DNA from: Armatimonadota bacterium
Lineage (GTDB): Bacteria > Armatimonadota > UBA5829 > DTJY01
Length of the DNA stretch: 64,000 bases
Assembly (NCBI GenBank): GCA_035528905.1
Contig: DATKXU010000109.1
Location: forward strand, 7,279 to 71,278
Reading direction: 5' to 3'
A model generated the notes under the pieces. That model searched no databases and was not told where the DNA came from. It saw only the letters and a program-made list of their open reading frames with translations. Both the position numbers and the translations under genes were made by a program. Positions within the stretch are counted from its first letter, which is position 1; each line of letters starts with the position of its first letter. Below, piece by piece: positions 5,430-61,027 of the stretch.

Positions 5430-5443
5430 CAAGGAGGACTTCG

Positions 5444-6037: not shown

Positions 6038-6081
6038 TCTCGCGAGCCAATCGAATCGTCCAAGGCCGGAAAGGGGAAGGG

Positions 6082-6151
6082 AACATCCAACACCCGACGT
6101 CCAATCCAGGGGCGCAAACCTGAGACCTGGAACCTGGAACTTGAAACCTTG
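6082..6151. repeat. heptanucleotide tandem array, 10 units in phase (AACCTGR type at the 3' half)
   Basis: AACATCC AACACCC GACGTCC AATCCAG GGGCGCA AACCTGA GACCTGG AACCTGG AACTTGA AACCTTG. Confidence 0.85.
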
Positions 6152-6223
6152 CCAGCCACGTTACGTAAAACAGATTGGATGCCGCAGTCTCTATTTATCA
6201 GTGGAAACGGATGGTGACTTCCC

Positions 6224-7711: not shown

Positions 7712-7720
7712 CATGCCGTT

Positions 7721-8260: not shown

Positions 8261-8279
8261 CCGGAGAGCAGCAACGGAC

Positions 8280-9089
8280 ATGAAAATGAATCAACGGGCT
8301 AAATGGAGAATCGGGTCAGCAATTGCGGCCACGATAGGCCTGGCGGTCGTGAGCGCGGTTCCGGCGGCGCAGCAAGGGACGCCTCCGAAGCCTGCCGAGC
8401 CCAAGTACACGGAGATCAAGTACTCCGCCGATATGACCTCGTATCGCTGGGACGGAGAGGACCGCATACTGGTGCTCAAGGGTAACGTCAAGTTCGTGCA
8501 GGGAGACACCGCTCTTCTCGCAGATAAGGTTGACTACCGCGAGAGCACAGACACGGCCATTGCGACCGGCAACCTGAAGATCTACGATGACCGGGACACG
8601 ATCACCGGCGACACATGCACCATGAACTTCGAGGAGAAGAAGGGAACGCTGGCAGGGAACGTTCGAATAGTGGCCAAGCCTAAGCCGAAGCCCCAGGGTT
8701 CATCGGACTCCAAGCCGAAATCGCTGAAATCCGAGTGGAAGGACGGCTTGGTCATCACCTGCGACAAGGTGGACTACTACTATAAGGAAAAGAAGGCGGT
8801 GATTCCCTCGCCGGTCACGATGGTGCAGAAGAGCAGGACGGTCACCGCTGATTCGGCGATATACCTCAGCAAAGAGGAGATCATTCAGCTAGTCGGCAGC
8901 GTCAAGGGACGCGACGAAAAGGACAGACATTCGTTCTCCGCGCCCAAGGTCACGATCTCCATCAAGGAGAACGATGAATGGATCACGGCCGAGAAGGCCA
9001 CCGGCTCTTTCTACGTGAAAGAGAAGGAAGAGGAGTCGAAGCCGGCAGAGAAGACGACTGAGCAGCCGGCAGAAAAGTCCGGCACGTAG
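8280..9089 (+). CDS. OstA/LptA-like periplasmic protein
   Basis: Signal peptide after the ATG at 8280. LKGNVKFVQGDTALLADKVDY...ATGNLKIYDDRDTITGD is typical of the OstA N-terminal domain. The 8238 start would overlap the previous gene. Confidence 0.65.
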   Translation: MKMNQRAKWRIGSAIAATIGLAVVSAVPAAQQGTPPKPAEPKYTEIKYSADMTSYRWDGEDRILVLKGNVKFVQGDTALLADKVDYRESTDTAIATGNLKIYDDRDTITGDTCTMNFEEKKGTLAGNVRIVAKPKPKPQGSSDSKPKSLKSEWKDGLVITCDKVDYYYKEKKAVIPSPVTMVQKSRTVTADSAIYLSKEEIIQLVGSVKGRDEKDRHSFSAPKVTISIKENDEWITAEKATGSFYVKEKEEESKPAEKTTEQPAEKSGT

Positions 9090-9225
9090 CGCACGAACGT
9101 ACAATATGCCCCACTCCGGAAACTCACCGCCGAAGGCCCTTGCTTCCGAGAGCCAAGATATTCGCAGGCTGTTAGGCGGCTGCTTGCACCAGTCCTCACC
9201 GGTTACTCAGCGATAGTTACCAGCT

Positions 9226-9361
9226 GTAAGAGTTCACGATTGTTGATAATAAAATCCGACCGTTGTCATTCTGAGTCCCGAGAATCGGGACGAAGAATCT
9301 GTCGAGCGTAGGCGAGATGCTTCGCTTTGCTCAGCATGACATTACTATCAAGGAACCTGAA
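9226..9361. repeat. about 135-nt interspersed repeat, copy A (partner at 42336-42471)
   Basis: Near-identical to copy B except for about 5 substitutions and a variable central loop (here the hairpin TCCCGAGAATCGGGA). Contains GTCATTCTGAG...GAAGAATC...GAGATGCTTCGCTTTGCTCAGCATGAC. Confidence 0.9.
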
Positions 9362-9374
9362 CTGTTTCTACTAG

Positions 9375-9402
9375 TTGCTTAAATGGTAGCAAGTGATATA
9401 AT
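9375..9402 (+). promoter_or_regulatory. sigma70-type promoter, TTGCTT-16-TATAAT with TGn extension
   Basis: TTGCTT at 9375-9380 and TATAAT at 9397-9402, preceded by GTGA. Lies 33 nt upstream of the 9435 ATG. Confidence 0.55.
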
Positions 9403-9434
9403 TAAGCTGGTGGTAGGTACGGAGGCGGATTGCC

Positions 9435-10547
9435 ATGCCGGAAATCAGCGAAGTCAACGCATATTCGCTGGAGCTGCCGCTCAGAGAGCCTTTCGGAACA
9501 GCAAAGGGCACCAAAACGACGTCGCCCGCGGTGATCGTCCACCTTGGGTTATCGAATGGCGTCTATGGCCTCGGCTCTGCGACTCCCGCCAAGTACGTCA
9601 CCGCCGAGGACACGGCTTCGGTCCTGTCAGCGATTGAGCTATGTGCGCCCGACCTCGTTGGTCTGGACGCAGCGGCCTACCTCCCCATTTTCGGAATGCT
9701 CGGTGAGGTGCTGCCACACGCACATTCCGCGCGCGCCGCGCTCGAGATAGCGGTCCTCGATGCCTTCTGCAAGCTCTACGACCTCCCGATGTGCAAGTTC
9801 CTCGGAGGCGCATTGCCCCAAGTGGAAACGGACATAACCATCCCGTTCGTGGGCTCAGAGGCCGCGCGTGAGCTTGCGCAACAGGCTGCCTCTCGCGGAT
9901 TCAAGCACCTCAAGATAAAGATCGGGAGCCACGACCCGGAGGACGATCTGGCACGAGTGCTCGGGGCGAGCGAAGGCGCGCCGCACTGCAGCATCAGGCT
10001 CGATGCAAACCAGGGGTTCACACCTACCGTCGCGGTAAGATTCGCAGGCAAGATTCAGGAGGCAGGCGTGAAGATCGACCTGTTTGAACAGCCGGTTGAC
10101 CGTAGGGACCTCGACGGGCTCCGCTATGTCACGCAGAACACATCCGTGCCGATCTTTGCCGACGAGAGCGCCGTGACGCCGTCCGATGTGCTGAAGCTGA
10201 TTGAGCTTGAGGCCGTGGACGGCATAAACGTGAAGCTGATGAAGTGCGGCTTGTCCGGCGCGCTGGATATCATTGCGATGTGCAAAGCCGCGCGCCAGGA
10301 ACTCATGCTGGGCTGCATGGTCGAGACTGGTATCGGGCTGGCTGCTGCTGTTCACCTCGCCTGCGGCACCGGCGCATTCAGCAGGATAGACCTGGACGCA
10401 CACATGCTGGTCTCCCCCGACAGCGGACTGTCCTCTGGAGGATTCACGCACAACGGCCCTGTCCTCATCGCCGATAGCACCGCGCCCGGCCACGGCAGCG
10501 CTCTTGCAACGACGCCTGAACTCGTACCATCCCAGCCTAGAACCTGA
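9435..10547 (+). CDS. dipeptide epimerase (L-Ala-D/L-Glu epimerase type), enolase superfamily
   Basis: KIKIG, RLDANQGF, LFEQP, FADES and KLMKCG motifs of the MR/MLE-family dipeptide epimerases. Confidence 0.8.
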   Translation: MPEISEVNAYSLELPLREPFGTAKGTKTTSPAVIVHLGLSNGVYGLGSATPAKYVTAEDTASVLSAIELCAPDLVGLDAAAYLPIFGMLGEVLPHAHSARAALEIAVLDAFCKLYDLPMCKFLGGALPQVETDITIPFVGSEAARELAQQAASRGFKHLKIKIGSHDPEDDLARVLGASEGAPHCSIRLDANQGFTPTVAVRFAGKIQEAGVKIDLFEQPVDRRDLDGLRYVTQNTSVPIFADESAVTPSDVLKLIELEAVDGINVKLMKCGLSGALDIIAMCKAARQELMLGCMVETGIGLAAAVHLACGTGAFSRIDLDAHMLVSPDSGLSSGGFTHNGPVLIADSTAPGHGSALATTPELVPSQPRT

Positions 10548-10575
10548 AACTTGAAACTTGACACCTGAAACCCTT
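10541..10575. repeat. heptanucleotide tandem array, 5 units (AACYTGA)
   Basis: AACCTGA AACTTGA AACTTGA CACCTGA AACCCTT. The first unit contains the epimerase stop codon. Confidence 0.85.
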
Positions 10576-10670
10576 TCCGCTGCTCGAAGGGTACTCGTTC
10601 GCGGACGCCTTGCATGTGCCGCAGCCAAGCGCCCGCCGTGAGGGCACCTCAGCAATTCGAGGGCGATTGC

Positions 10671-10700
10671 TTGACAGAGGGATTTCGCATCCTGTATACT
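10671..10700 (+). promoter_or_regulatory. sigma70-type promoter, TTGACA-18-TATACT
   Basis: TTGACA at 10671-10676 and TATACT at 10695-10700. Implies a leader of about 150 nt before murA. Confidence 0.5.
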
Positions 10701-10851
10701 TTGCCAGACGATCGGAACGCAAGAGTGGGCTAGAATCCGCGGCCGGCCCGACGCGTCGCAAAGCGCCCCCGAGTGGGTAAAATAGATATTGGGCTGGCAA
10801 GCGGTTCTGCCCAGTGCCGCATCTGCCGGACGTCACGAGGAGGTTCGATTC

Positions 10852-12135
10852 TTGCAAGAAATCTACGTGGTAGGCGGTAACAGACTAAAAGGCGACGTTA
10901 GGATCAGCGGCAGCAAGAACGGCACACTAGCGATCATGGCGGGGGCGCTGCTCGCCAAGGGCACCACAATTCTCGAAAATGTCCCTCGGATCGGCGACAT
11001 AAACACCATGGTGGAGATGCTGCGGCAGGTCGGCGTGAGAACCAGGGTGAGCCGCGAAAACCGCGTGGAAATAGACGCCTCCGAAATCGAATCGAACGAA
11101 GCCCCATATGAACTAGTAAAGAAGATGCGGGCTTCGTTTTGTATCACCGGGCCGATACTCGCCAGACTGGGCTATGCGAAGGTCCCCATGCCCGGCGGCT
11201 GCGACATAGGCGCACGCCCCATAGACTTCCACGTGAAGGGGCTTCAGGCCCTGGGAGCCAGAGTTTCCATCGAACACGGCTACGTGGAAACCGAAGCCAG
11301 CAAGTTGAGGGGCGCTCACATTTATCTCGACTTCCCAAGCGCAGGCGCGACCCAGCACATCATGACAGTGGCCTGTCTCGCGGAGGGCACGACGCGCATT
11401 GAGAACGCGGCGCTCGAGCCGGAGGTAGTTGAACTCGCGGACTTCCTGAGCGCAATGGGCGCGAGGATATGCGGGGCCGGCACGAGCACGATTGAAGTCG
11501 AAGGCGTGAAGGAGCTCCACGGCGTTACCCACACGATGATACCCGACCGAATGGAGGCCGGCACCTTCGCCATCGCGGCAGCCGCCACCAGGGGCGATGT
11601 AATTCTGGTGTGCGCAATCTCCGAGCACTGCACCGCTGTGTTCCAGAAGCTGGAGGAGGCAGGAATACGCGTGGCGGCGGGTACGGACTGCGTGCGGATC
11701 ACGTCCGACCGCCGGCCTATAGCCACAGACATAAAGACCATGCCACACCCCGGTTTCCCCACGGACATGCAGCAGCTGTTCACGGCGATGCTTACCATTG
11801 CGGACGGCACGTCTGTGGTCAGCGAGAGCGTCTACGAGCGCAGGTTTAAGTACGTGGCGGAACTCCAGAGGATGGGGGCAGACATCGTACAGGAAGGACG
11901 AACTGCGATCATCAAGGGCGTGCCGAAATTGACTGGTGCCCAGGTGACGGCCACCGATCTCCGCGCAGGCGCCGCTCTGATAATCGCCGGCCTTGCGGCG
12001 GACGGACGTACCGAAATCTCCGGCGTGGAGCACATTGACCGCGGTTACGAAGACATCGAGGGCAAGCTGGCGTCGCTGGGAGCCGAAGTAGTCCGCAGCG
12101 AGGTCGCGCCTGAGTCCGCAGTTCGACTGGCCTAG
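10852..12135 (+). CDS. murA: UDP-N-acetylglucosamine 1-carboxyvinyltransferase
   Basis: LKGDVRISGSKNGTLAIMAGALLA and PGGCDIGARPIDFH (active-site Cys loop). TTG at 10852 lies 8 nt after GAGGAGG. The 10789 start is less likely. Confidence 0.93.
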   Translation: MQEIYVVGGNRLKGDVRISGSKNGTLAIMAGALLAKGTTILENVPRIGDINTMVEMLRQVGVRTRVSRENRVEIDASEIESNEAPYELVKKMRASFCITGPILARLGYAKVPMPGGCDIGARPIDFHVKGLQALGARVSIEHGYVETEASKLRGAHIYLDFPSAGATQHIMTVACLAEGTTRIENAALEPEVVELADFLSAMGARICGAGTSTIEVEGVKELHGVTHTMIPDRMEAGTFAIAAAATRGDVILVCAISEHCTAVFQKLEEAGIRVAAGTDCVRITSDRRPIATDIKTMPHPGFPTDMQQLFTAMLTIADGTSVVSESVYERRFKYVAELQRMGADIVQEGRTAIIKGVPKLTGAQVTATDLRAGAALIIAGLAADGRTEISGVEHIDRGYEDIEGKLASLGAEVVRSEVAPESAVRLA

Positions 12136-12183
12136 GCACCGATCCCTGTTTCAAGGCCGCGAAAGGCCGTGGACGCCGTGGAT

Positions 12184-12208
12184 GTCCCAGCAGTTGGGCT
12201 GCTGGGAC
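12184..12208 (+). terminator. stem-loop terminator (GTCCCAGCAG / CTGCTGGGAC)
   Basis: Perfect 10-bp stem with a 5-nt loop, followed by TTGCTATT, 49 nt after the murA stop. Confidence 0.6.
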
Positions 12209-12329
12209 TTGCTATTAGTGGACATGCCACAAGCCGGTCCGCCGAAACGGAAGCTTGCTCAGAAAGACGCAGATTCGTCCTGCGTCCGCAAGCGATGTTC
12301 GGGTAAACTAGTTCCAGAGAGGGCTTGAG

Positions 12330-38800: not shown

Positions 38801-38879
38801 GCGCGCGGTCATGTTCCTCCTCAACCCGAAGGGCCAGGTGCTCGCCGAATACGGCGGCGCGGTGGCGAAAGAGGCTTAG
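35820..38879 (+). CDS. clan GH-A glycoside hydrolase (GH5/GH42-like) with flanking GATase-like domains
   Basis: DFAEMKSAGVNVVRTGIW, WDLINEPSF (acid/base NEP) and PSLIEETG (candidate nucleophile). The C-terminal RLIVLPSP..EEGAVLLVTGP resembles a GH42 trimerisation-type domain. No signal peptide seen. Confidence 0.6.
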   Translation: MDARMLIFHEKDFPFVDTVELSPQELIEALPPVESVRTVGLDELKKQLRRDSVDLLINPYGSAFPKAAWPEIYEFLAAGGNLLNLGGAPFSIPVVREGSAWRQEIRQTAYQRELMINQAFPVETAGVKSYDTIPTEPLLSGLTDDFSCDRVFELEVRFTTKNDMLGEVGSSGSREAVLRPLLYGLDAQGRRVAAPVIAVDRVFGPFAGGRWVLANFTSSSIPRKEIIQRLATFAALGPSEFQVRPSFACYHTDERASFVVHVNRFEKAAKEPLKPILLLKIRKDNITITSQSVEITDFRSPYYRVIPLEIPLSPGVYGVEAVLSTGDPALSEKFASYCVTGFWYYDTALVSKTQRLSAGRDFFMRDSNVSPLVGTTYMASDVHRKFLFEPNPAVWEQDFAEMKSAGVNVVRTGIWTAFRHVMLNPGAPNEGVMRALTAFLLSAAKHDMTVIFTFFAFTPEAWEGVNPFLDPRSLQAQKDYVAAFAWRFSKFNNLMWDLINEPSFPGRGKYWTSRPNYDPFEEQAWREWIEARHPSGDLEEAWRATPRTGAGLPDLHDFEDHQTYQDRTPMRALDYRLFVEDIFNRWVREMTSVIRQNGNPKQLITVGPDEFGAGECPGPQFHWREVAFTCTHTWWRNDDLLWSGLVTKVSGKPSLIEETGIMPLVNPDKMNRRTEEDCRNLLERKFVMAFASGGAGVIEWVWNTNVYMTSDCETGIGFHRADFTRKPELEIMPAMAAFIREARPHLEDRQPEDVCMVIPHSNMFSVRDHATAATRACVRVMHYHCGVPMRAVGEYSLENLGKPRLIVLPSPRALNQDAWETLVKAMEEGAVLLVTGPIDWDEYWRPVDRLSKFGMQSETRPVTREEEAIIFGTEHRLSFGGEKVHRVDKAVIGGQSGFVKVEACGAGKLVYAPLPFELADNSEPTAALYQFALKQAVVEPPFSVEKMDPGVLIRPQLFEESVLYSVVSETDVDKEFDLTDKLTGRTLSVKVPAQRAVMFLLNPKGQVLAEYGGAVAKEA

Positions 38880-38880
38880 T

Positions 38881-38915
38881 GTTTCAAGTTTCAAGTTCCA
38901 GGTTTCAGGTTCCAG
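38881..38915. repeat. heptanucleotide tandem array, 5 units (reverse complement of the AACYTGR type)
   Basis: GTTTCAA GTTTCAA GTTCCAG GTTTCAG GTTCCAG, starting 2 nt after the stop codon. Confidence 0.85.
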
Positions 38916-38979
38916 CTTGGAGATTGAACATGGGATTGTTCAAAGACGTTGATTTCGCTCTGGATCCCCTGGGTTGTAT

Positions 38980-42198: not shown

Positions 42199-42335
42199 GC
42201 TTGCCTCCCCAGAGACCCCGTGGCAGGGGCCAAGAATGCCATGATTACCATTCCGCCCTGGCTTTGCTGAATCCTGCGGGATATGCGCCTGGAACCGCCC
42301 GGCGAGCAGATTCGCTCTGCATTCACACTCGAAGT

Positions 42336-42471
42336 GTAAGAGTTCACGATTGTTGATAATAAAAGCCAACCGTTGTCATTCTGAGCGGCAGCGAAGAATC
42401 TGTCGAGCGTAGGTGAGATGCTTCGCTTTGCTCAGCATGACGTTACTATCAAGGAACGTGAAATCTTTCAT
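42336..42471. repeat. about 135-nt interspersed repeat, copy B (partner at 9226-9361)
   Basis: Same orientation and ends as copy A. The central loop is CGGCAGC instead of a 16-nt hairpin. Confidence 0.9.
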
Positions 42472-45956: not shown

Positions 45957-47459
45957 TCAGAGCCAGTCTATGCCCCAGCGGTTGCGCGGGTGGCAGGATA
46001 TCTTTATCGGCTCGGCTAAGAGCGGGGTTTCCAGGACCATCCAGAGGGGGCGGACGCCGGTTGTGTTAATGGTGATCTCGGCGCCGATCTGCACCAGGAG
46101 ACCCCGTTTTTCTTCTATTGGCGAGGCCTGCCAGTTCTCTTCTACGCGGTCGGCTATGGCGAGCACCTGCTTCATAGAAATCCGCGGAGACGGCGGCGGC
46201 ACCGGATCCGCTTTGGCGTCAAGCTCGGCGATGAGGTTCAGGAACTCAGCCTCGGTGATGTGGCCCTGGACATAGAGGTGAACCGCGCGATCGCGCATGG
46301 CGGACAGATCTCTCGCACGCGGAGGACGCATCGGTGCGGGCGGTAGGATGCCCTGTGCGACCTGGGCTTTCGTTTGACTAAAGAAGTTTTGGGCTGCGCG
46401 GGCGGCCATAGCGTCCACATAGCGGTCGCTCACATGGTGGCTATCGCAGGCGCCATAGAGTCGCTTCATTTTGCACACCCATTGGAGAAATCTCACCCCG
46501 TCGCTGTTTCCCCTGACTGGAACAAGCAAGGACCCGCAGAGCGAGCAAGAAAGCAAGCCTCCGTAGGCGAGAAGGGTTTGTGGCCGGCGCGGAGAATACT
46601 GGCGGTGCTCCAGGAGGGCGGCAGCCTGGTTTACGAGTTCCAGAGGGACGACTTCGGGCACGAGGTCGGGGGCATCAATGGTGCGGCCGGCCCAGAAGAG
46701 CTGGCGGCGGTAGAAGGGGCTCTTGAGGAGACGGAGGACGGTGCAGGGGATCCACAGGCTGCCCTTGGGACTCGGAACGCCCTGGCGGTTAAGCTCATAG
46801 GCGACTCCGGTAGCATTTCCGCCCGAACGGACATAGGCATCGAACAGCATCCGGACGTCGTCGGCTCGGTCGGTGATATTGAAGGCCTTCGTGGCAGGGT
46901 CGTATTGCATTCCGAGCGGGAGATTACCTCCGGGCCACCTGCCGGCGAGGAACTGGGCGAGGTGGTGCTCGTAGATTCGCTGGCCGGTGAGCCTGCGTTC
47001 AAACTTGCGGACGTGCATCATAAGGCCATGGAGCAACTCGCCGCTGGGCGTGGAGAGATCAATCGGGTCCTTGATGGAGATAAGCTGGCAATTATGCTTT
47101 GCGAGGAAGGCGATACCGGAGTACTCATCCTGGGGATCACGGAAGAGGCGGTCCATGCGCAGGACGATAAGGCCATCGAATGGGCGATCTTTGGCACTGA
47201 CGGCGCGGAGGAGCTCCGACCCAGCGGGCCGCTTCTCGACGGGGATGGCGGCGGAGACGCCGAAATCGCGGTAATCGCCGACGAGCTGGTAGTTCTGAGC
47301 GGTGCATTCCTGCTTAATGAGCGAGAGTTGGGTATCCAGGGAATCGTCCTGCTGGTCGGTGCTGCATCGGAGATAAGCGGTGACTTTCATTGGGGCGGCC
47401 TGCGCCGATGGCAGGGGCGGCGTGGGCTGCCGGGTCGTGTGATTGGACGTATTGACCAA
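45957..47459 (-). CDS. large serine recombinase (phage integrase)
   Basis: Resolvase-type N-terminus VTAYLRCSTDQQ, a recombinase domain and a Cys-rich zinc-ribbon region (CSLCGS...CKMKRLYGAC). About 480-500 aa. Confidence 0.92.
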   Translation of the reverse strand: MVNTSNHTTRQPTPPLPSAQAAPMKVTAYLRCSTDQQDDSLDTQLSLIKQECTAQNYQLVGDYRDFGVSAAIPVEKRPAGSELLRAVSAKDRPFDGLIVLRMDRLFRDPQDEYSGIAFLAKHNCQLISIKDPIDLSTPSGELLHGLMMHVRKFERRLTGQRIYEHHLAQFLAGRWPGGNLPLGMQYDPATKAFNITDRADDVRMLFDAYVRSGGNATGVAYELNRQGVPSPKGSLWIPCTVLRLLKSPFYRRQLFWAGRTIDAPDLVPEVVPLELVNQAAALLEHRQYSPRRPQTLLAYGGLLSCSLCGSLLVPVRGNSDGVRFLQWVCKMKRLYGACDSHHVSDRYVDAMAARAAQNFFSQTKAQVAQGILPPAPMRPPRARDLSAMRDRAVHLYVQGHITEAEFLNLIAELDAKADPVPPPSPRISMKQVLAIADRVEENWQASPIEEKRGLLVQIGAEITINTTGVRPLWMVLETPLLAEPIKISCHPRNRWGIDWL

Positions 47460-50853: not shown

Positions 50854-51315
50854 ATGGAAGTGGAGATACAAATCGAGTGCAAGATGCTGTATTTTCTGGC
50901 GGGGGCGCAGGAATGCGTTCTCGACTTCGAGATCGAGGACGAGGAGAAGCGGCCCCAGCTTCTCAGGATACTGGCTCCGCTGCAAGGAAAGTACGTCCCG
51001 ATATGCGTGAGGGCGAGCGGTTCCGATGGGGATCGGATATTCCTCGGGACGAAGTTATCCGCAGCGGCTCCGGTGGGAGACAGCATCCTGCAGGTGAGCT
51101 TTACACTCCCCGGCAACAAAGCCGGGCCAGGTACGCTGGTCCGGAGGGAAACGATCGGGCGAGCGGCGGCGATCGCGGGGCTCGATGTGAAGCTCTGTAT
51201 GCAGTGTCCGGAGATTGGGACCACGCTAAGACAAGGAAAGGGGATGGAAGCAGATGGGAAGGAAGAAAGCAGGGAAGCAGTCAGCGGACAGCGCTCAGCG
51301 GACAGCAGAGAGTAG
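50854..51315 (+). CDS. phage hypothetical protein
   Basis: 153-aa ORF after GAGGAAAGGG. The 3' end reads into the heptamer array and overlaps the ParB-like start, so the true end is uncertain. Confidence 0.5.
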   Translation: MEVEIQIECKMLYFLAGAQECVLDFEIEDEEKRPQLLRILAPLQGKYVPICVRASGSDGDRIFLGTKLSAAAPVGDSILQVSFTLPGNKAGPGTLVRRETIGRAAAIAGLDVKLCMQCPEIGTTLRQGKGMEADGKEESREAVSGQRSADSRE

Positions 51316-53227
51316 TCAGCAGCCAGCAGACAGCAGCCAGCAGTCAGCAGCCAGCTACGCGGAGATTCCGATCGGGAAGATCGTAGTTAGCGGGGACAAT
51401 CCCAGGAAGCATTTCGACGAGGAGAAGCTGCTGGAACTGGCGGAGAGCATCCGGGCGCACGGGGTGATCGAGCCGATCGTTGTAAGGCCGGTGAGGTTGT
51501 CGGCTGGCGACCGGTTTCAATCCGACGGTCAGGAATACGTGGTGGACGCTCCTGGGGGCGCTGAGGTCCCGAACATCACCTACAAGAGGGAGAAGGCTCT
51601 ACAGCCCGCCTGGGAGACTCACGAGGTATTCGCAGAGAAGCACAGCTTTGACTTGAAAGGCGGGGGTCTATACCGCTACCACCTTATCGTCGGAGAGCGG
51701 CGGCTACGGGCCGCGGTGATCGCCGGGTTGACCTCGGTGCCGGCAATCGTGAAGGAATGCGACGACAGGAAGTCTAGCGAGCTAAGGCTCATCGAGAACT
51801 TGCAGCGGCAGGACCTGGATGTGGTCGAGGAAGCGACGGGCTACCAGGCGTTGATCGCCCTGGGGTACAGCCAGTCGGAGATCGGGGCGAAGGTTGGGCG
51901 AGCACAGCCGACGATTGCGAACAGCATCCGGCTGCTGAAACTGCCGGAGGACGTCAAGGAACGGGTAAGCACTGGCGAGATCTCCGGCAGCCACGGGCGC
52001 GCGCTGGTGCCGTACGCGGAGATCAACCCGGCGGCGGCGTCGGTGTTGGCGTCCGCCGCAGCGGACCACCGCCAATTGACGTCGAAGCAACTGGAACAGA
52101 TGGACTACTCTGTGGCCTGCATGCTCGGAGAGAACCTCTGCGTCCAGATGCGGACGTATGACGCGCCGTTCGTCGAGAAGACGTGTCAGGGCAAATGTGA
52201 TTGCTACAGAAAGGGCGACTGGTGCCTCAAGCCTGAGTGTTACAAGGCTAAGCTGGCCGTTGCCGAGCAGGCTCACCGGAAGCGCGTCGAGGCACTGATC
52301 GCGAAGGCGACGGGTGAGGGAGTGGAGGTGGTCGACCTGTCCAAGCTCAGAAGCGAGAACTACGAAACGCTGCGCGAGGGCCATGTCCCGGACGGCTGCC
52401 GCGAGGATTGCGAACACCGGCGGTTGGGTTCACATCAAAAGGGCGGCGAGCCTTTCTCGGTTTGCGTCAACATGCACTGCTATCGGAAGCTACGGAAGGC
52501 CACGATCAAGGCCAAGAACGCCGCTCGGAAGCAAGAACTGGACCAGCTCCTGAGCCGGTGCATCGAGGGCCTGGACGCGCACCAGAGGTTCGACCGCCTG
52601 GAGGCGGTGGTATGCTGGGAGGCGATTCGAGCGGCGAACAAGGACGTCGTCAAGGCGGCGATCGCCCGGCTCGACCTGCCGCTCGACGTGGAGCTGCTCA
52701 AGGGATTCGGCAAGTTGACGGAGAAGCTGGACGCCCTGCGCTCGCTGCCGGGCACGACCGCGATGTACCTTGCGGCTGAGATTCTTCTGCGCGGGGAGCA
52801 CAAGCAGGCGCTCCCGTCGGGGGAGTATTGCGCCGGAGCGACTCCGGTAGGGATGCAGTGGTATCTCGAGATCGAGGAGACTTCCGGCTCGGCTGAAGGC
52901 GCGGCGGAGGAAGAGACTGTCGAGCAGGCGGCCGAGCCGGCGTCCGAAGACGGCGCTGTTTTCGTCGTTTGCGTGGCCTGCGGGTCGGAACTCCGCCTAG
53001 CCGAGGATTCTGAGAAGGCGGAGGTTGGGGACCCATTCGGGACCGCGTATTGCGCCAACGAGGAGTGCGAGACCCCGGTCATGGTGCCGATCGGGGCGAC
53101 AGTTCAGATCCCAGGGGAACGGTGGACATGGACGGAGATCGGCTGGCAGGGGGTACTGGGCCTCGAAGCCGAACCGCCGATAGACGCCGATGGGAGTGGA
53201 GAAGAGAGCGATGTCGCCGGCGACTAG
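51254..53227 (+). CDS. ParB/Srx-like nuclease-domain protein with a Cys-rich C-terminal extension
   Basis: IPIGKIVVSGDNPRKHFDEEKLLELAESIRAHGVIEPIVVRP and HLIVGERRLRAAVIAGLTSVPAIV are ParB N-terminal boxes. An HTH-like GRAQPTIANSIRLLKL follows, then several CxxC clusters downstream. Confidence 0.8.
   Translation: MGRKKAGKQSADSAQRTAESSQQPADSSQQSAASYAEIPIGKIVVSGDNPRKHFDEEKLLELAESIRAHGVIEPIVVRPVRLSAGDRFQSDGQEYVVDAPGGAEVPNITYKREKALQPAWETHEVFAEKHSFDLKGGGLYRYHLIVGERRLRAAVIAGLTSVPAIVKECDDRKSSELRLIENLQRQDLDVVEEATGYQALIALGYSQSEIGAKVGRAQPTIANSIRLLKLPEDVKERVSTGEISGSHGRALVPYAEINPAAASVLASAAADHRQLTSKQLEQMDYSVACMLGENLCVQMRTYDAPFVEKTCQGKCDCYRKGDWCLKPECYKAKLAVAEQAHRKRVEALIAKATGEGVEVVDLSKLRSENYETLREGHVPDGCREDCEHRRLGSHQKGGEPFSVCVNMHCYRKLRKATIKAKNAARKQELDQLLSRCIEGLDAHQRFDRLEAVVCWEAIRAANKDVVKAAIARLDLPLDVELLKGFGKLTEKLDALRSLPGTTAMYLAAEILLRGEHKQALPSGEYCAGATPVGMQWYLEIEETSGSAEGAAEEETVEQAAEPASEDGAVFVVCVACGSELRLAEDSEKAEVGDPFGTAYCANEECETPVMVPIGATVQIPGERWTWTEIGWQGVLGLEAEPPIDADGSGEESDVAGD
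51278..51354. repeat. heptanucleotide tandem array, 11 units (NNNNCAG), inside coding sequence
   Basis: CAGTCAG CGGACAG CGCTCAG CGGACAG CAGAGAG TAGTCAG CAGCCAG CAGACAG CAGCCAG CAGTCAG CAGCCAG. Confidence 0.9.
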
Positions 53228-55387: not shown

Positions 55388-58255
55388 ATGGATGTCAAAG
55401 ACTTTGTAGAGACTATACGCGAGCGGGCACAGATCGTTGATTTGGCCGGGAAAGTTACGCAACTTTCGGCGGGGGGTCGGCCTACCGGTCTGTGCCCGTT
55501 TCACAAAGAGGACGGACCCAGCTTCACCCTATATCCCGAAGAGAACAGATGGAAATGCTACGGGTGCGGGCGAGGCGGGTCCGTCTTCGATTTTGTGATG
55601 CAGGCAGAGGGCGTGGAGTTCTGGGAGGCGGCGATCCGGCTGGCCGGGCGGTACGGGATCGCGATACCGGAGTTCACGAAGAAGGATCAGCAGGCGGCGG
55701 CGCGGGAGCAGGCGGTCCGGGCATTCCTCGCGGAATACGTGGCGCGGTCGCACGAGCTGCTATGGAAGAAGCCGGAGGCCCTGGCATACCTCGCGGACCG
55801 CGGGATCACGGAGGATTCGATCAGAGAATATCAGATCGGCTACGGGATCGCGATCAAGGACGCCCAACTCCGCAAGAAGGCGGTGGTGGCGGGGCTGATC
55901 AAGCGGGTGGACGGTCAGGAATACGAGCTGCAGATGGGTCGGCTCATATTCCCGGTTGTTCACCACGGCAAGGTCCTGCAGATGTGCGGACGGACGCTGC
56001 GAGAGGCAAAGCCGAAGTACATCAGCCTGGCCAACGCGGGATACACGCCGATCGTGCCGATGGGAATGCACAGGCTCCGCGGGCGGCAGTGCGTGCTGGT
56101 CGAGGGCGCTATTGACCGCATCCTCCTGGAGCAGGCCGGCATCCCCGCCTGCTCGACAATCTCCGCAAGCTTCTCCCGCGACTGGCTGCGCTGGCTCGGC
56201 AAGGACACGAGGTTCGTGCTGGCATACGACGCCGACGCCAACCAGGCCGGCCAGGCGGCGAGCGACAAGATCGGGCGGCTGCTGTTTGAGGCAGGGCATG
56301 CCGTCGAGGTCCTGGAGCTCCCAGAGCCGCACGACCCTGCTTCCTACGTCCAAGAGAACGGCGCCGAGTCCTTCCGGAGCCTGATGGCGCAGGCACTGCC
56401 GTATATCAGCTACTGGATCCGCCGGCAGCCGGCGAAGGCGGGAATCGAGGAGCAGCAGCGCATTCTCCGGCAGGGGTATGAGCTGATTGCTTGTGTGGAT
56501 CGGGGGGTTCGCGGGCCGTTCGTCAACGAGCTGGCCAAAAGGTACGATCTGATCAGAGGGGATGTGAGAGACGGCCTGAGTCAGTATCTGCGCGACAGCA
56601 GTAAGGAGAAAGACGGACGCGGGCAGGGACTTCCGCTGGCGCTGCCAGAGGATGTGGACAACGGGCTGCCCGTGATAATGGCCGACTGCGGTGACTTGGT
56701 CGTGACCACGGCAGAAAGTTGGGATGCGATTCGCCTGGCGAACCAACCGCCCCAATATTTCAGGCAGGGACGTTCCTGCCTGCGGCTCGAACCGGACGAC
56801 AACGGGGCGCTCGTGCCCGTTCGGCTCAATCTGGACCTGATGAGGCACACGCTCGTGCGAGTGTCAAATTGGCGGATAGAAAAGACATCAAAAGGAGGGT
56901 TTGGTTACATGCTTAAAAGTTCACCAAGCGACAAGCAAGTCCGTGATGCGCTGGCGATCCCGGATATCCCTCTCCCTGTGCTGACGAGGATCACCGAGGT
57001 GCCGGTGTTTGCGCCGGACGGGACGCTGCAGACCGATCCGGGCTATCACGCAGCATCGAGGACATTCTACCAGCCCGCGGTCGGGGTCGAGATCCTGGAG
57101 ATTCCGCAGGAGATCACCGACGGCCACATTCAGGCCGCGGTGGATGTATTCGGAGATATCGTCTGCGAGTTCCCGTTCAAGGATGTGGCGGACCGGGCTC
57201 ATGCGTTCTGCCTCTGGCTGCTGCCGTTCGTCCGCGATATGATCCCCGGGCCGACGCCGCTCCACCTGATCGAGGCGCCTGAGCCAGGATCGGGCAAGAC
57301 CTTGCTGATGGACGTGTTGATGATGCCATCGGTCGGCCGGCACATCGGCACTGTGACCCAGACAACGGATGAGGACGAGTGGCGCAAGAGGCTGACGGCG
57401 GTCTTCCAGAAAGCGCAGCCCGTCGTCATGATTGACAACGTCACTAAGAGTCTGGATTCCGCTGCCCTCAGCTCGGCGCTGGCAGGGATAGTCTGGGAGG
57501 AGCGAATTCTAGGGAAGATCGAGAGTCTGGACGTGCCGATCCGCTGCGTCTGGGTGGCGACGGCGAACAACCCTACCATGTCCACGGAGATCGCCAGGAA
57601 AACGATCCGCATCAGGATTGACCCCCAAGTTGATCGTCCCTGGCTGCGTGAGGGATTTAAACACCGGGACCTGAGGTCGTACACGCTCGACAACCGGGCG
57701 ACTCTGGTATGGGCGGCGCTGCTGATCTGTAAGGCCTGGGTGGACAGGGGGATGGCGGAGTATCAGGGCAGGCCCTTGGGCAGTTATGAGCATTGGAGTC
57801 GGGTTCTCGGGGGGATATGCGAGACGGCAGGAATACCCGGATTCCTGGACAATCTGACGGAGTTTTATGAGATCGCGGATATAGAGGGCGGCCTGTGGCG
57901 GGCGTTCGTCGAGATTTGGTACGAGAGACACCGCGATCGGCCGGTCGGCGTGTCGGAGCTCTTCGACACGGCGGTCGAGAGCGAGCTGTGGAGCTTCGGC
58001 AAGGGCTCGGAGAGGTCGCAGCGGATCATATTCGGGAAGATGGTCGGGAGACAGCGGGATCGTGTGATCGGGGATTTCCGGATCGTCCAGGCGGGCGAGC
58101 GGCAGCGGGCGAAACAATGGGCGCTCCAGTCCACGAAGGATGCGTCGGAGAGGGAGCAGGTTGAGGGTGAGGACGTGTTAGGGGCGCCTTCGGATGAGGA
58201 TCAGGAGGTGCTCGACATTCCGATCGGGGAGGAGTCAGATGCAGGCTCTGATTGA
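55388..58255 (+). CDS. DNA primase (CHC2 zinc finger + Toprim) fused to a P-loop NTPase/helicase region
   Basis: CPFHKEDGPSFTLY...WKCYGCGRGGSVFDFV (CHC2), VLVEGAIDRILLEQ (Toprim) and EAPEPGSGKTLLMD (Walker A) further downstream. Confidence 0.85.
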   Translation: MDVKDFVETIRERAQIVDLAGKVTQLSAGGRPTGLCPFHKEDGPSFTLYPEENRWKCYGCGRGGSVFDFVMQAEGVEFWEAAIRLAGRYGIAIPEFTKKDQQAAAREQAVRAFLAEYVARSHELLWKKPEALAYLADRGITEDSIREYQIGYGIAIKDAQLRKKAVVAGLIKRVDGQEYELQMGRLIFPVVHHGKVLQMCGRTLREAKPKYISLANAGYTPIVPMGMHRLRGRQCVLVEGAIDRILLEQAGIPACSTISASFSRDWLRWLGKDTRFVLAYDADANQAGQAASDKIGRLLFEAGHAVEVLELPEPHDPASYVQENGAESFRSLMAQALPYISYWIRRQPAKAGIEEQQRILRQGYELIACVDRGVRGPFVNELAKRYDLIRGDVRDGLSQYLRDSSKEKDGRGQGLPLALPEDVDNGLPVIMADCGDLVVTTAESWDAIRLANQPPQYFRQGRSCLRLEPDDNGALVPVRLNLDLMRHTLVRVSNWRIEKTSKGGFGYMLKSSPSDKQVRDALAIPDIPLPVLTRITEVPVFAPDGTLQTDPGYHAASRTFYQPAVGVEILEIPQEITDGHIQAAVDVFGDIVCEFPFKDVADRAHAFCLWLLPFVRDMIPGPTPLHLIEAPEPGSGKTLLMDVLMMPSVGRHIGTVTQTTDEDEWRKRLTAVFQKAQPVVMIDNVTKSLDSAALSSALAGIVWEERILGKIESLDVPIRCVWVATANNPTMSTEIARKTIRIRIDPQVDRPWLREGFKHRDLRSYTLDNRATLVWAALLICKAWVDRGMAEYQGRPLGSYEHWSRVLGGICETAGIPGFLDNLTEFYEIADIEGGLWRAFVEIWYERHRDRPVGVSELFDTAVESELWSFGKGSERSQRIIFGKMVGRQRDRVIGDFRIVQAGERQRAKQWALQSTKDASEREQVEGEDVLGAPSDEDQEVLDIPIGEESDAGSD

Positions 58256-58631
58256 GCGGTTGAAGGCTCAGGGAATTAGGTTGGAATTACAGGGGGGATC
58301 GCTGCGGGTGCATGCGGCTGTGGGCGCTCTGACGCCGGAGATCCGGGAGCTGCTGCGGACGCACAGCGCGCAGTTGGCCAGGGAGTTGAACGATTCGGAC
58401 GGGGCGGAGGGCGAGGGGTTGACGGTCGAGGGATTGGTTGATTTGATCCGGGGGCAACTAGAGGGCCGCCCCCTGCCGATTGCGATTAGGCCAGGCGAGA
58501 GCATTGTGGGGGTCGAGGTTTATGTGCGGAGCGAGGCTCGGACGTTCTTGAGGGGCTGTCCATTGGCTGTCGGTGCGGTGAGGGGCAGGTTGCAATGTTT
58601 GGGTATTGCTGGGAGGGCATTGGAGGGCTGA
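58239..58631 (+). CDS. phage hypothetical protein
   Basis: ATG 4 nt after GGGGAGGAG. MQALIERLKAQGIRLELQGGSLRVHA... Overlaps the primase 3' end by 17 nt. Confidence 0.55.
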   Translation: MQALIERLKAQGIRLELQGGSLRVHAAVGALTPEIRELLRTHSAQLARELNDSDGAEGEGLTVEGLVDLIRGQLEGRPLPIAIRPGESIVGVEVYVRSEARTFLRGCPLAVGAVRGRLQCLGIAGRALEG

Positions 58632-58683
58632 GAGCCGGCTGTTTTCGCTGCTTTTAATCTCAAAGGAGTAGACAGGAGTCGGG

Positions 58684-58829
58684 GTGTGAATGTTGTGTAT
58701 ATTTGTGAATGTCCTGCACTGTTACTATACGCAATGCGCGCGCGGCGCGTGCAATACGCACACACGCGAATTTGGTAATACGTATATAGCCGGGGGCGGA
58801 AACATTCACAACATGCACAACATTCACAC
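58684..58829. repeat. 146-bp composite palindrome with four GTGAATGT boxes (2 direct + 2 inverted)
   Basis: Outer IR GTGTGAATGTTGTG (58684-58697) / CACAACATTCACAC (58816-58829). Inner IR TTGTGAATGT (58703-58712) / ACATTCACAA (58802-58811). The centre holds TATACG...CGTATA and GC-rich GCGCGCGCGGCGCG. Confidence 0.9.
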
Positions 58830-58845
58830 GGCCAGAGTGTTAGGA

Positions 58846-59202
58846 ATGTTAAGGCCTGAGGGTGATCTGGTGCTGAAGTTTGTCGTTTGCGGGGTTGAGA
58901 GCGGGGAGCGAGTGATCCGGCTGGAGGATCCGGCGGGATTGTTCGGCGTCGAGGATGTCGAGTTCGGGCCAGGTGAGTATTTTATAGCTGCCAAGAGGGT
59001 GCTTGAGCTTCAGATGGGGCGGAGGGCGCCGGCATGGCTGGCGACGTCGTTCGCCGTGCACGTGCTCCTCCCCGCGGACGATGGATTCTGCATGACGGGG
59101 GAGGAACTGGATCGGTGGATCGAGGGCAGGGTCGCGGCGGCGTGTCCCCCACCCCTCCGAGACAATTCCCGGCGATTAGCGTGGCGGCGGACGAGGAAAT
59201 AA
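58846..59202 (+). CDS. phage hypothetical protein
   Basis: Internal ATG (MLRPEGDLVLKF...) of the listed 58690 ORF. The upstream part of that ORF lies in the palindrome. Confidence 0.45.
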   Translation: MLRPEGDLVLKFVVCGVESGERVIRLEDPAGLFGVEDVEFGPGEYFIAAKRVLELQMGRRAPAWLATSFAVHVLLPADDGFCMTGEELDRWIEGRVAAACPPPLRDNSRRLAWRRTRK

Positions 59203-59225
59203 CAGGATATATAACACGGTGTGTA

Positions 59226-59254
59226 TTGCGTGATTGCGGGGATTGTGGTATGAT
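59226..59254 (+). promoter_or_regulatory. sigma70-type promoter, TTGCGT-17-TATGAT with TGn extension
   Basis: TTGCGT at 59226-59231 and TGG-TATGAT with the -10 at 59249-59254. Lies upstream of the tyrosine recombinase gene. Confidence 0.55.
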
Positions 59255-59300
59255 AGGGATGGCGCTTGATACTAAGGTGTCGGGCGCGATCGGGCGAAAA

Positions 59301-59321
59301 CTCGCAATGTAATATTGCGAG
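59301..59321 (+). promoter_or_regulatory. 8-bp hairpin or palindrome CTCGCAAT-GTAAT-ATTGCGAG in the recombinase leader
   Basis: Perfect inverted repeat ending 3 nt before the AGGAGGAG ribosome-binding site. Confidence 0.5.
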
Positions 59322-59339
59322 CGCAGGAGGAGCAAGGCA

Positions 59340-60197
59340 ATGGAGGATGTTTTGAGTGGATTTCGCGCGGAATTGGAGAGGCAGGATCTGAGTCCGGCGA
59401 CGGTCCGGGGTTATATCAACGATGTGGAGTTGTTCGCTCGGTGGTACACGGATGCCTACGGCGAGCAGTTCGATCCGGCGCGGATCGTTCAGCGGGAGGT
59501 CTCGGAATATCGGGCGTGGATGCAGCAGAAGCCCGCTGCGGCTGAGACGATCAACAGGCGGCTAACCTCGATCAGAAAATTCTTCGATTGGCTGGGCGGA
59601 AACAATCCGGCTGCCGCCGTGAAGGGGGTTGCGATTGTTGATCCGGGCGTGCAGGCGCTGTCCACGCCGGAACTGCGGCGGCTGATGCGGGAGGTCCACG
59701 TCCACGGCGTAGTCCGGGATATCGCGATCCTGGAGGTCCTGTGCGGGACGGCGATCCGGGTCGGCGAGCTGGTGCAGCTCCGGGTCGGGGATGTGGAGAT
59801 TTCGGAGCGGAGGGGCGCGGTCAAGGTTCGGAGCGGCAAGGGCCGGACGAGCCGGGAAATCCCGCTGAACGTGGACGTGCGGAAGGCATTGGCGGCATGG
59901 ATAGCAGCCAGCGGCCAGTCGGAGTGGCTGTTTACGGGGCAGCGAGGGCGGCTGACGGCCGTCGGAGTGTGGCGGGTCGTGCGGAAGTACGGCAAGTTCG
60001 CCGGGATCCCGAATCTGCGAGTGCATCAGCTCCGACACACGGTATTGACGCGGCTTGTGCGGGAGTGCGGCGCCGACCTGGCGACGGTGGCGAGGATTTC
60101 GGGGCATCGGGATATCCGGACACTGACGCGGTACATCGAGCCGACGCAGGACGACCTGGCGCAGGCGGTGGAGAAGCTGGCGCTGGGAGGGGAGTGA
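59340..60197 (+). CDS. tyrosine recombinase, XerC/XerD-like
   Basis: SAM-like N-terminal domain (ATVRGYINDVELFARW). Catalytic-domain motifs GTAIRVGEL, VHQLRHTVLTRL and GHRDIRTLTRY. Confidence 0.9.
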   Translation: MEDVLSGFRAELERQDLSPATVRGYINDVELFARWYTDAYGEQFDPARIVQREVSEYRAWMQQKPAAAETINRRLTSIRKFFDWLGGNNPAAAVKGVAIVDPGVQALSTPELRRLMREVHVHGVVRDIAILEVLCGTAIRVGELVQLRVGDVEISERRGAVKVRSGKGRTSREIPLNVDVRKALAAWIAASGQSEWLFTGQRGRLTAVGVWRVVRKYGKFAGIPNLRVHQLRHTVLTRLVRECGADLATVARISGHRDIRTLTRYIEPTQDDLAQAVEKLALGGE

Positions 60198-60223
60198 CCG
60201 GAGGCAACCGCCGATGAACGCGG

Positions 60224-60517
60224 ATGGACACAGATCGGATAATTGGTAATGGGGTGAGGGAATTGAGCCGACTTGAGTGGCCGTATGTGGTGTCTGAGGC
60301 GGGGATAGTCCATCGGGTTCTGGTGGCCCGGCCGTGGGGCGCATACGGTCAGATGGTGGCGGTTGAGACGGTGTGCAACGGGTGGCTCTTGCACGTGCCG
60401 AAGGGTAGTTTGCGGCGGCATAAACCGCGGGGAGCGCGGCTGTGCAGGAAGTGCTTTGGGCCAGTCGGAGGAACCGCCAAGGCGCGAAGAGGATCGGGGA
60501 AGGAAGCAGCGGGATGA
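60224..60517 (+). CDS. phage hypothetical small protein
   Basis: 97-aa ORF. C...CRKC motif. Stop overlaps the next ATG (ATGA). Confidence 0.4.
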   Translation: MDTDRIIGNGVRELSRLEWPYVVSEAGIVHRVLVARPWGAYGQMVAVETVCNGWLLHVPKGSLRRHKPRGARLCRKCFGPVGGTAKARRGSGKEAAG

Positions 60518-60735
60518 GTGCAACCGGGACAGGCAAACCGGGGTCATGTTGCAGGTGTGGCGAAGATGGGAACAGGCGGCTTATAGGACTTACTTTCGTC
60601 TTCCTCTGTGACGCCTGCTGTGCAAAGGCCAAACACGCCTACTGGCTTTTGCGCAGTGCCGAGAATGTCTCGCGACGGCCATCGGGCTATGCTCTTAGGC
60701 GTTGGGAACAGAAGCATCGGACCAGCCAGGAGTGA
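60514..60735 (+). CDS. phage hypothetical small Cys-rich protein
   Basis: 73 aa, CCRCG...CDACC zinc-ribbon-like. ATGA coupling to the upstream ORF. Confidence 0.4.
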   Translation: MSATGTGKPGSCCRCGEDGNRRLIGLTFVFLCDACCAKAKHAYWLLRSAENVSRRPSGYALRRWEQKHRTSQE

Positions 60736-60748
60736 GGGAGGCGCGGGG

Positions 60749-61027
60749 ATGGCGGAGACGATGGGCGATCGGATCAGGAAGGCGCGGATCAAGTTGAAGA
60801 TGAAGCAGGAGGATGCGGCGGGAGAGGCCGATCTCTCCAGGGTGACCTGGTCGCACCTGGAGAACGACGAGGTCGACGACCCTCGACTCAGTACTCTGCA
60901 AAGAGTGGCGCACGTGCTAAAGATGTCGCTGGAGGCACTGATCGGCGAAAAAAATCTGCTCCCGGGGCGAAAATGTAAAGGCGCCTTTATTGACAAGGTG
61001 GTGGAAAAGCGTAAACTGGTATCGTGA
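60749..61027 (+). CDS. XRE-family HTH transcriptional regulator
   Basis: ATG 7 nt after GAGGGAGG. IRKARIKLKMKQEDAAGEADLSRVTWSHLEN...STLQRVAHVLKMSLEALI. Confidence 0.8.
   Translation: MAETMGDRIRKARIKLKMKQEDAAGEADLSRVTWSHLENDEVDDPRLSTLQRVAHVLKMSLEALIGEKNLLPGRKCKGAFIDKVVEKRKLVS

Follow-up and report, generated by a model that had tools for sequence, protein, structure and literature searches.

A probable iteron-type replication origin behind the primase-helicase gene of an Armatimonadota prophage

We have analyzed a composite palindrome of 146 bp in a 64-kb stretch of DNA from an Armatimonadota bacterium (contig DATKXU010000109.1); this whole stretch, 64,000 nt in length, is referred to below as the window. 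The palindrome (58684-58829) lies within a prophage, between the gene for a primase-helicase of 955 amino acids (aa) (55388-58255, + strand) and the gene for a tyrosine recombinase. We conclude, with a probability of about 85%, that it is the replication origin of the prophage, built on the pri-rep-ori design of the Staphylococcus aureus pathogenicity islands (SaPIs), the phage-inducible chromosomal islands (PICIs) and P4, with the primase-helicase as the proposed origin-binding initiator. The original prediction, made from the window alone, had set two readings side by side, an iteron-type origin next to the primase-helicase gene and an invertible promoter switch. The first is borne out by the linkage of palindrome and gene in five close lineages, the linkage of similar arrays to the gene in 87 of 103 loci of the wider helicase family, the co-variation of the boxes with a β-hairpin wing of the protein, and the predicted SF3 fold of its helicase.

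Results and Discussion

Structure of the palindrome

The palindrome contains four copies of the box TGTGAATGT, two on the left (58685-58693 and 58704-58712, + strand) and two on the right (58802-58810 and 58820-58828, - strand). As first described, these create a perfect outer inverted repeat of 14 bp (58684-58697 and 58816-58829) and a perfect inner one of 10 bp (58703-58712 and 58802-58811), with 89 nt between the inner arms. Each side is a tandem of three units at 9-10-nt spacing, the middle unit being degenerate. The left iteron set (58685-58712, + strand) consists of TGTGAATGT (58685-58693), TGTGTATAT (58694-58702) and TGTGAATGT (58704-58712), and the right set (58802-58828, - strand) of ACATTCACA (58802-58810), ACATGCACA (58811-58819) and ACATTCACA (58820-58828). 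The two sets thus oppose each other, with two exact copies per side and six units in total.

All four exact copies of TGTGAATGT in the 64 kb fall in the palindrome, where 0.30 would be expected in the whole window by chance, and four copies were reached in none of 100 dinucleotide-preserving shuffles. Copies with one mismatch number 15 against a chance value of 8.0±2.9; 5 of the 15 lie inside the array, and the rest are scattered singletons at a level expected by chance. A generic scan for any 8-mer present at least twice per strand within 260 nt flags the palindrome alone in the window.

The 89-bp core between the sets (58713-58801) has a variable left half, which includes the GC block GCGCGCGCGGCGCG (58738-58751), and a conserved right half. 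In the latter lies an A+T-rich sub-block, GCGAATTTGGTAATACGTATATAG (58766-58789), which contains the 8-bp palindrome ATACGTAT and is the proposed melting site; it is kept in four of the five lineages described below, and lineage L016 has it with one substitution (AATACCTATAT). The lowest-GC 30-nt stretch of the core has 37% GC in the window (the bottom 1.1%) and 17-37% in the relatives, against a background of about 60%, and the core as a whole has 41-49% GC in the relatives against a background of 59-61%. The other core elements reported in the original prediction can be confirmed as well, namely TATACG/CGTATA, the GC block and a TTGCAC-19-TATAGT on the minus strand.

The array starts 54 nt past the stop codon of an open reading frame (ORF) of 130 aa that encodes a TubC_N-type docking domain (58239-58631, + strand; Pfam PF18563, E = 5e-11). 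It starts 555 nt past the C-terminal motif of the initiator, because this other gene is inserted between the two. A weak terminator-like hairpin (58626-58640) is located upstream of the array, and a promoter scan of 58100-59400 detected no sigma-70-type consensus site. To the right of the palindrome, GTTAGGAATGTTAAG (58839-58853) is conserved as DNA in the five lineages in the form GTTAGGAWTGTTAAG, including the islands, whose downstream ORF is truncated. It looks like a degenerate box, is constant across box types, and may serve the next gene as a signal for translation or transcription. This gene is a + strand ORF of 110 aa. Its start had been placed at ATG 58846; GTG 58870 is the more likely start, because the ATG is lost in a relative while the conserved upstream GAGGGTGA and the GTG are kept.

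The palindrome in close relatives

Close relatives were collected by exact-protein look-up of the recombinase, from contigs carrying homologues of the TubC_N-like protein, and through a 68%-identical primase (L016). A search for the same boxes in such relatives had been suggested with the original prediction, and the palindrome was indeed found in five lineages, placed after the primase-helicase gene. The primases of these lineages are 68-84% identical, and all five lineages have three units, a core of 87-89 nt and three inverted units. Two contigs (L001 and L002) are identical to the window. In L003-L005 the recombinase is identical to that of the window and the intergenic region has diverged: the four strong boxes have all changed in concert, from TGTGAATGT to TGTGTATGT, and the left half of the core cannot be aligned with that of the window, whereas the right half is conserved. 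The box is thus TGTGAATGT in the window, TGTGTATGT in L009-L012 and L003-L005 and also in L006-L008, and AGTGAATGT in L013-L014 and in L016.

The palindrome has one constant neighbour, the gene for the primase-helicase. The array of L016 starts 16 nt past the primase stop codon, and both the TubC_N gene and the acidic tail of the primase-helicase are absent there. The recombinase, on the other hand, differs by lineage, with 285, 321 or 288 aa on the + strand or 303/328 aa on the - strand. Two of the elements, L006 and L016, are small and comprise little more than one to three small ORFs, the primase-helicase gene (68-84% identical), the palindrome and an integrase gene on the opposite strand. 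L006 (approximately 5400-12250) has host genes on both flanks; its contig, of 152 kb, bears the name Armatimonadota at NCBI. A search for att-like direct repeats around L006 was negative. These two elements resemble satellite or PICI-like islands with the replicon of the prophage.

A mosaic breakpoint can be seen inside the downstream ORF (58870-59010). L003-L005 carry the L009-type origin and upstream genes, and from about codon 45 of this ORF onwards, whole recombinase included, they are identical to the window. This mosaic shows that recombination has occurred recently just to the right of the palindrome.

The TubC_N-like ORF has 4 homologue clusters in 5.8 billion proteins. In this clade only, it is inserted between the primase-helicase gene and the palindrome, and it is confined to lineages with an acidic-tailed primase-helicase (..DQE(V/T)LDIPI(G/E)E..; the tail of the window protein is encoded at 58133-58255). 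This distribution suggests that the TubC_N-like protein and the acidic tail may form a docking pair that recruits or regulates the initiator. The presence of the palindrome does not depend on this ORF, as L016 illustrates.

The primase-helicase

Residues 1-360 of the 955-aa protein constitute a DnaG-type primase, with a Zn ribbon and a Toprim domain: Pfam Zn_ribbon_DnaG, DNAG_N and Toprim_2 cover residues 4-327, and there are matches to TIGR01391 (E = 8e-62) and to PDB 2au3 (E = 4e-30). The C-terminal 535 residues gave no sequence match in Pfam, NCBIfam or PDB. They include a helicase core at about residues 530-780, with the Walker A motif PEPGSGKT (631-638), the Walker B motif VVMIDN (679-684) and motif C VATANN (723-728).

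An AlphaFold model built with 29 homologues has a predicted local distance difference test (pLDDT) score of 87.5. Its best Foldseek match is 7OLA, the SaPI5 primase-helicase (E = 9e-9, probability 1.0), followed by the African swine fever virus PrimPol and poxvirus D5/E5. Owing to the multi-domain nature of the model, TM-scores are low (0.32-0.40); identity in the structural alignments is 10-12%. Judged by these matches of the predicted structure, the C-terminal half is a D5-like SF3 helicase. Residues 821-915, approximately, are predicted with a pLDDT of 90 to have an α-β-α-α-β-β topology, and are followed by the acidic tail (..DQEVLDIPIGEE..). This domain is a probable winged helix, graded so because the topology fits and a search with the domain by itself was not significant. 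The codons of its β-hairpin wing (residues 897-915, ..DFRIVQAGERQRAKQWALQ; 58076-58132, + strand) would specify the box-reading element.

Iteron arrays throughout the helicase family

Homologues of the helicase module, at about 50% identity, number more than 1400; in them the module is fused at the N-terminus to a DnaG-type, prim-pol, NrS-1-type or DUF3854 domain, or stands alone. Its nearest relatives among GenBank phages, cultured phages included, are at most 32% identical and mostly annotated as hypothetical. We assembled 160 loci (L018-L177) from IMG/VR and from GTDB species genomes; the source genomes are named as Armatimonadota, Elusimicrobia, Chloroflexota, Planctomycetota, Acidobacteriota and many Alphaproteobacteria, cultured strains among them.

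An exact 8-mer is present at least twice per strand downstream of the conserved C-terminal motif in 125 of the 153 loci with enough sequence, and in the 121 loci outside the close clade the array starts at a median of 26 nt past this motif. After dereplication, an array was found within the 400 nt that follow the motif in 87 of 103 loci, compared with 15 of 1814 other 400-nt blocks taken from these loci; the same test found none in shuffled copies. The boxes comprise 47 distinct 8-mers, for example GTGAATGT, GTGAACGT, GTGAACCT, GTGTATGT, GGGGAACG, GGGAGGTT and GGGGGTCT. Purely convergent arrays account for 28 of the 125, and the others mix orientations. Some helicase ORFs, such as those of L098 and L020, appear to run through the iteron array.

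Co-variation of boxes and initiator

Of the 751 aligned primase columns in the close clade, only 8 divide according to box type. Three of these are non-conservative and adjacent (residues 905, 906 and 908; R905, Q906 and A908 in the window), and in the model they fall at the tip of the β-hairpin wing and in its second strand. The sequence GERQRA is paired with GTGAATGT in the window, L013 and L016, and G(T/K)LHRV is paired with GTGTATGT in L006 and L009-L012. The pairing persists in L006, even though its neighbouring tail resembles that of L013, which has A-type (GTGAATGT) boxes. L016, which was found later, has A-type boxes together with ERQRA.

The association extends to the family as a whole. 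Among 68 distinct wing/box lineages, H[QKNH] at positions W-5 and W-4 accompanies boxes that begin GGG.. rather than GTG.. (19/0/0/49; Fisher p = 3e-17), and Val or Ile at W-3 accompanies T at box position 4 (5/3/1/59; Fisher p = 3e-5), both p values being without phylogenetic correction. The wing/box classes are interspersed on a neighbour-joining tree of the helicase core from which the wing was excluded. The tree also contains repeated sister contrasts, for example KSKRASQW with GTGAACAT against KSKRISQW with GTGTATGT. A code of one residue to one base was considered and rejected: ERQRAK occurs with both GTGAATGT and GTGAACCT, and TYQGA and TAQRA occur with both GTGAATGT and GTGAACGT. The TubC_N-like protein was likewise rejected as the box binder, having one co-varying column and being encoded neither in L016 nor in the wider family. 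From the wing/box co-variation, and with the TubC_N-like protein excluded, we conclude that the primase-helicase itself is, as far as comparison of sequences can tell, the protein that recognizes the boxes.

Proposed mechanism

The 955-aa protein would be a self-loading initiator, in which a DnaG-type primase is followed by a D5-like SF3 helicase and, at the C-terminus, by a winged-helix-like domain whose β-hairpin wing would read boxes of 8-9 nt (core GTGAATGT). The three boxes of each side lie one helical turn apart, in two sets that face each other. Because the sets face each other, two helicase oligomers are proposed to assemble across the fixed core of 87-89 bp in opposite orientation; the match of this anatomy to the published description of the SaPI Reps is the basis for proposing an oligomer on each of the opposed sets. 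The oligomers would then open the DNA at the conserved A+T-rich block (GAATTT..AATACGTATATAG) and travel away from each other; the fused primase would make the primers for the host polymerase, and replication would be bidirectional. The spacing of 87-89 bp, kept in spite of a freely evolving left half, fits a geometric constraint between two complexes. We infer binding, melting, loading geometry and replication at the palindrome from the comparisons above.

Several observations weigh against an origin at this site. The core in the window is weakly enriched in A+T, with 56% GC against 60%, and it holds a GC-rich block; clear A+T-richness is limited to one 30-nt stretch. The gap of 555 nt in this clade departs from the rule of iterons immediately downstream. 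Cumulative GC skew, put forward in the original prediction as a check on the origin, has no inflection at the palindrome and rises monotonically across 42-64 kb; it is uninformative on the question, because co-directional genes dominate. The winged-helix call rests on topology, and Foldseek with the domain alone gave no significant match (best E = 0.5), although the list consists mostly of winged-helix domains. The wing/box statistics take no account of phylogeny, and the relation of residue to base is not one-to-one (ERQRAK is also found with GTGAACCT). Throughout this helicase family, moreover, binding and replication are inferred.

Alternative explanations

The alternative that survives best, though still improbable, is a regulatory or copy-control site, with boxes bound by the primase-helicase and an origin elsewhere, acting through autoregulation, handcuffing or in the manner of P4 crr. 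Co-variation bears on recognition and not on initiation, the core in the window is weakly A+T-rich, and P4 reportedly needs a second iteron cluster (crr) apart from its ori. No second box cluster is present, however, in the 18 kb of prophage within the window, and L006 and L016 hold little other non-coding DNA. The opposed sets, the fixed spacing and the A+T-rich block also match the experimentally defined origins of SaPIs and PICIs (PMC9371898, PMC6092414).

The inverton of the original prediction has very little left in its favour. It supposed that the Xer-like recombinase (59340-60197) flips the 89-bp core, turning a leftward promoter (TTGCAC-19-TATAGT) toward or away from the downstream genes. 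It draws on inverted repeats around a short segment and on a tyrosine recombinase gene about 500 bp downstream. The prophage also encodes a separate serine integrase (45957-47459), which leaves the tyrosine recombinase free for another role, and the recombinase weakly matches NCBIfam tyrosine-type DNA invertases (E = 4e-10, far below cutoff). Orientation was assessed from the conserved asymmetric core motif relative to the conserved downstream flank; an inverted core would give the junction GTGAATGT-TTCCGCCCCCGGCTATATACG. In the assembled sequence of the window and of 15 independent contigs from several samples the orientation is identical, with the conserved right half always beside the right set, and the halves of the core never swap. 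A search with the conserved-core pattern found nothing in IMG/VR, and a single scan of Joint Genome Institute metagenomes with it found only three contigs that were already known, in the same orientation. The proposed promoter falls in the unconserved half of the core, is absent in the relatives and is not recognized as such by the promoter scan. While the palindrome stays, the recombinase varies from lineage to lineage, being swapped, reversed or different; both box variants are found together with one identical recombinase; and about 100 helicase loci have an array but no such recombinase context. A single orientation, an unconserved promoter and an unstable linkage to the recombinase leave little room for an invertible switch.

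Recruitment of host DnaA is less probable still. ACATTCACA agrees at 7 of 9 positions with the relaxed DnaA-box consensus, TTATNCACA, and at 8 of 9 with the Escherichia coli R5M box, TCATTCACA, and the A/T variable position of the boxes falls on the N of the consensus. But the boxes of relatives lack the terminal A (ACATTCACT, ACATTCACC), those of the wider family diverge even within one host clade (GGGGAACG, GGGAGGTT, GGGGGTCT), and the variation tracks the element's own protein and not the host. With 47 lineage-specific 8-mers in the family, a host-wide site such as a DnaA box is therefore effectively ruled out.

A parS site for the ParB-like protein (51254-53227), or an operator for the helix-turn-helix (HTH) protein (60608-61027), is equally improbable. 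Inverted repeats are typical of both and both genes belong to the same prophage, but the palindrome is present in L006 and L016, where the ParB gene and this HTH gene are both missing, which makes the suggested binding of ParB to the boxes unlikely, and in about 100 loci it is the helicase gene to which the array is linked. Finally, a structural hairpin, cruciform or RNA stem (terminator or attenuator), with the concerted A-to-T and T-to-A changes as stem covariation, is just as improbable: the arms can pair (DNA fold of -39.3 kcal/mol, z = -4.7) and the box change preserves their complementarity, but a stem would not call for the joint change seen in the two direct copies of one arm, the unit spacing of 10 nt in one arm and 9 nt in the other breaks the register, the mixed-orientation arrays (all but 28 of 125) cannot form one stem, and there is no Rfam match.

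Comparison with known replicons

An origin at the palindrome finds its closest parallel in the SaPIs and PICIs. SaPI Reps recognize iterons through a C-terminal winged helix and are self-loading, probably as two hexamers; their six to twelve iterons lie immediately downstream of rep, with an A+T-rich centre and at least two iterons per side in opposed orientation (PMC9371898). Gram-negative PICIs have the same layout, and the function of their pri-rep-ori has been tested (PMC6092414). Our system shares with them, and with the fused PriRep of SaPI5, a predicted initiator of primase, SF3 helicase and C-terminal DNA-binding domain, and an array 3' of the initiator gene in which opposed sets surround a core with an A+T-rich stretch. 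The six units are within the SaPI range of 6-12 (PMC9371898, PMC6092414), the helicase module has its best structural match in the SaPI5 protein (7OLA), and, as with PICIs, close relatives of the module occur in small integrase-bearing islands. There are also differences. No sequence homology to SaPI Reps is detectable, so that the protein is a structural relative and not a sequence-level member of that group. The boxes are 8-9 nt long, whereas SaPI iterons have 5-6 nt; the primase is DnaG-type; a TubC_N-like gene stands between rep and ori; the element is a prophage and not a satellite; and the core in the window is weakly A+T-rich and contains a GC block.

The α protein of P4 combines a DnaG-type primase, an SF3 helicase and a winged helix that binds the iterons of the origin, which is the identical domain order (PMC2777425). 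Unlike α, our protein has no Pfam or NCBIfam match of the P4 family (D5_N/TIGR01613-type), and no second cis element like crr was found within the window, which ends at 64000 inside the prophage. The P4 ori is not known to lie directly 3' of the α gene. The boxes of the helicase family follow the pattern G[TG]G[AG][AG]NNT, with GTGAACAT in L018 and L098; the P4 type I iteron, TGTTCACC (reverse complement GGTGAACA), fits this pattern.

The origins of SV40 large T and papillomavirus E1 have short inverted recognition sets, two opposed SF3 hexamers and an adjacent A+T-rich element. These are eukaryotic viruses, however, and their origin-binding domain has another fold, lies N-terminal to the helicase and is accompanied by no fused primase. 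ORF904 of the archaeal plasmid pRN1 is similar to our protein in joining a primase to an SF3 helicase, with a winged helix predicted at the C-terminus; its primase, in contrast, is of the prim-pol type, and pRN1 has no recognizable iterons (PMC2777425). The region 3' of the pRN1 rep gene is reported to be essential for replication (PMC2777425; PMC4234260). With fim-type invertons (the fim segment has about 100-300 bp) the palindrome shares short inverted repeats around a segment and a nearby tyrosine recombinase gene; it differs from them in having no second orientation, no conserved internal promoter and no conserved linkage to a recombinase.

The prophage and its surroundings

Positions 1-45950 of the window are host chromosome, with genes for LptA/LptC-like proteins, an enolase-superfamily enzyme, GH38, GH10 and GH5 hydrolases, NfeD with SPFH, and TsaB/D. 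The left end of the prophage is at about 45.96 kb, and 18 kb of it are inside the window. Its first gene encodes a large serine recombinase of 500 aa, the serine integrase (45957-47459, - strand), and is followed by a stretch of low GC (45-54% at 47.6-49 kb). Beyond this stretch all prophage genes are on the + strand. According to Pfam, PHROGs and NCBIfam scans, they begin with an HNH endonuclease and include the ParB-like protein (51254-53227), the primase-helicase, the TubC_N-like ORF, the 110-aa ORF, the Xer-like tyrosine recombinase (59340-60197) about 500 bp to the right of the palindrome, and the HTH protein (60608-61027), after which come an exonuclease-like protein and the small terminase. 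The element is a prophage with structural and packaging genes and not a satellite. As the prophage starts with a serine integrase, the Xer-like recombinase is probably not the integrase; multimer resolution beside the ParB-like protein is one possibility for its role.

Scans of the window for tRNAs and Rfam families gave no matches. A near-identity search of 57500-60500 against GenBank phages found none either, and in IMG/VR neither the primase nor the recombinase, each scanned as a single protein, returned any relatives.

The host DNA of the window has repeats of its own. A direct repeat of about 145 nt, 94-96% identical, occurs at 9225-9368 and 42335-42469, 33.1 kb apart. Both copies are upstream of + strand genes (the enolase-superfamily enzyme and NfeD) and carry hairpin motifs of the type GTCATTCTGAG..GAAGAATC; the element resembles a dispersed intergenic repeat or a miniature inverted-repeat transposable element. 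Runs of short repeats of the AACCTGAAAC/TTGAAAC type are found in both orientations at three intergenic sites (6117-6147, 10536-10580 and 38865-38918). A palindrome with 24-nt arms that are 96% complementary (CGAAGGCCCGGTTCATTGCAATGA..., 1487-1522) lies between two host genes and is probably a terminator.

Conclusions

The layout of this proposed origin matches the known pri-rep-ori design of SaPIs and PICIs; what goes beyond expectation is the family-wide rule and the co-variation of wing and box. For the window, the analysis identifies a probable prophage origin and its putative initiator, and removes the false lead of a phase switch. The helicase module belongs to no Pfam family, yet it has more than 1400 homologues in many phyla, joined to four kinds of primase. 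As an iteron array follows the 3' end of the helicase gene in about 85% of loci, the arrangement offers a simple rule by which the origins of uncultivated phages, prophages and satellite-like islands can be predicted. The roughly 70 natural pairs of initiator wing and box provide material for studying the evolution of initiator specificity.

A more speculative extension, to which we give rather low odds, starts from the replicon type shared by the prophage and the islands, on account of which the islands could be satellites. Their origins might be fired by the phage initiator, or the reverse, with the TubC_N-like protein and the acidic tail controlling the loading of the initiator, and with a specificity code between wing and box. 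The L016 island has the same GTGAATGT boxes and ERQRA wing as the prophage. If this picture is true, there would be cross-talk or piracy between the replicons of prophage and islands, the wing/box pairs would keep competing elements apart, and the TubC_N-like docking protein, together with the acidic tail, would add a further level of control over which initiator loads.

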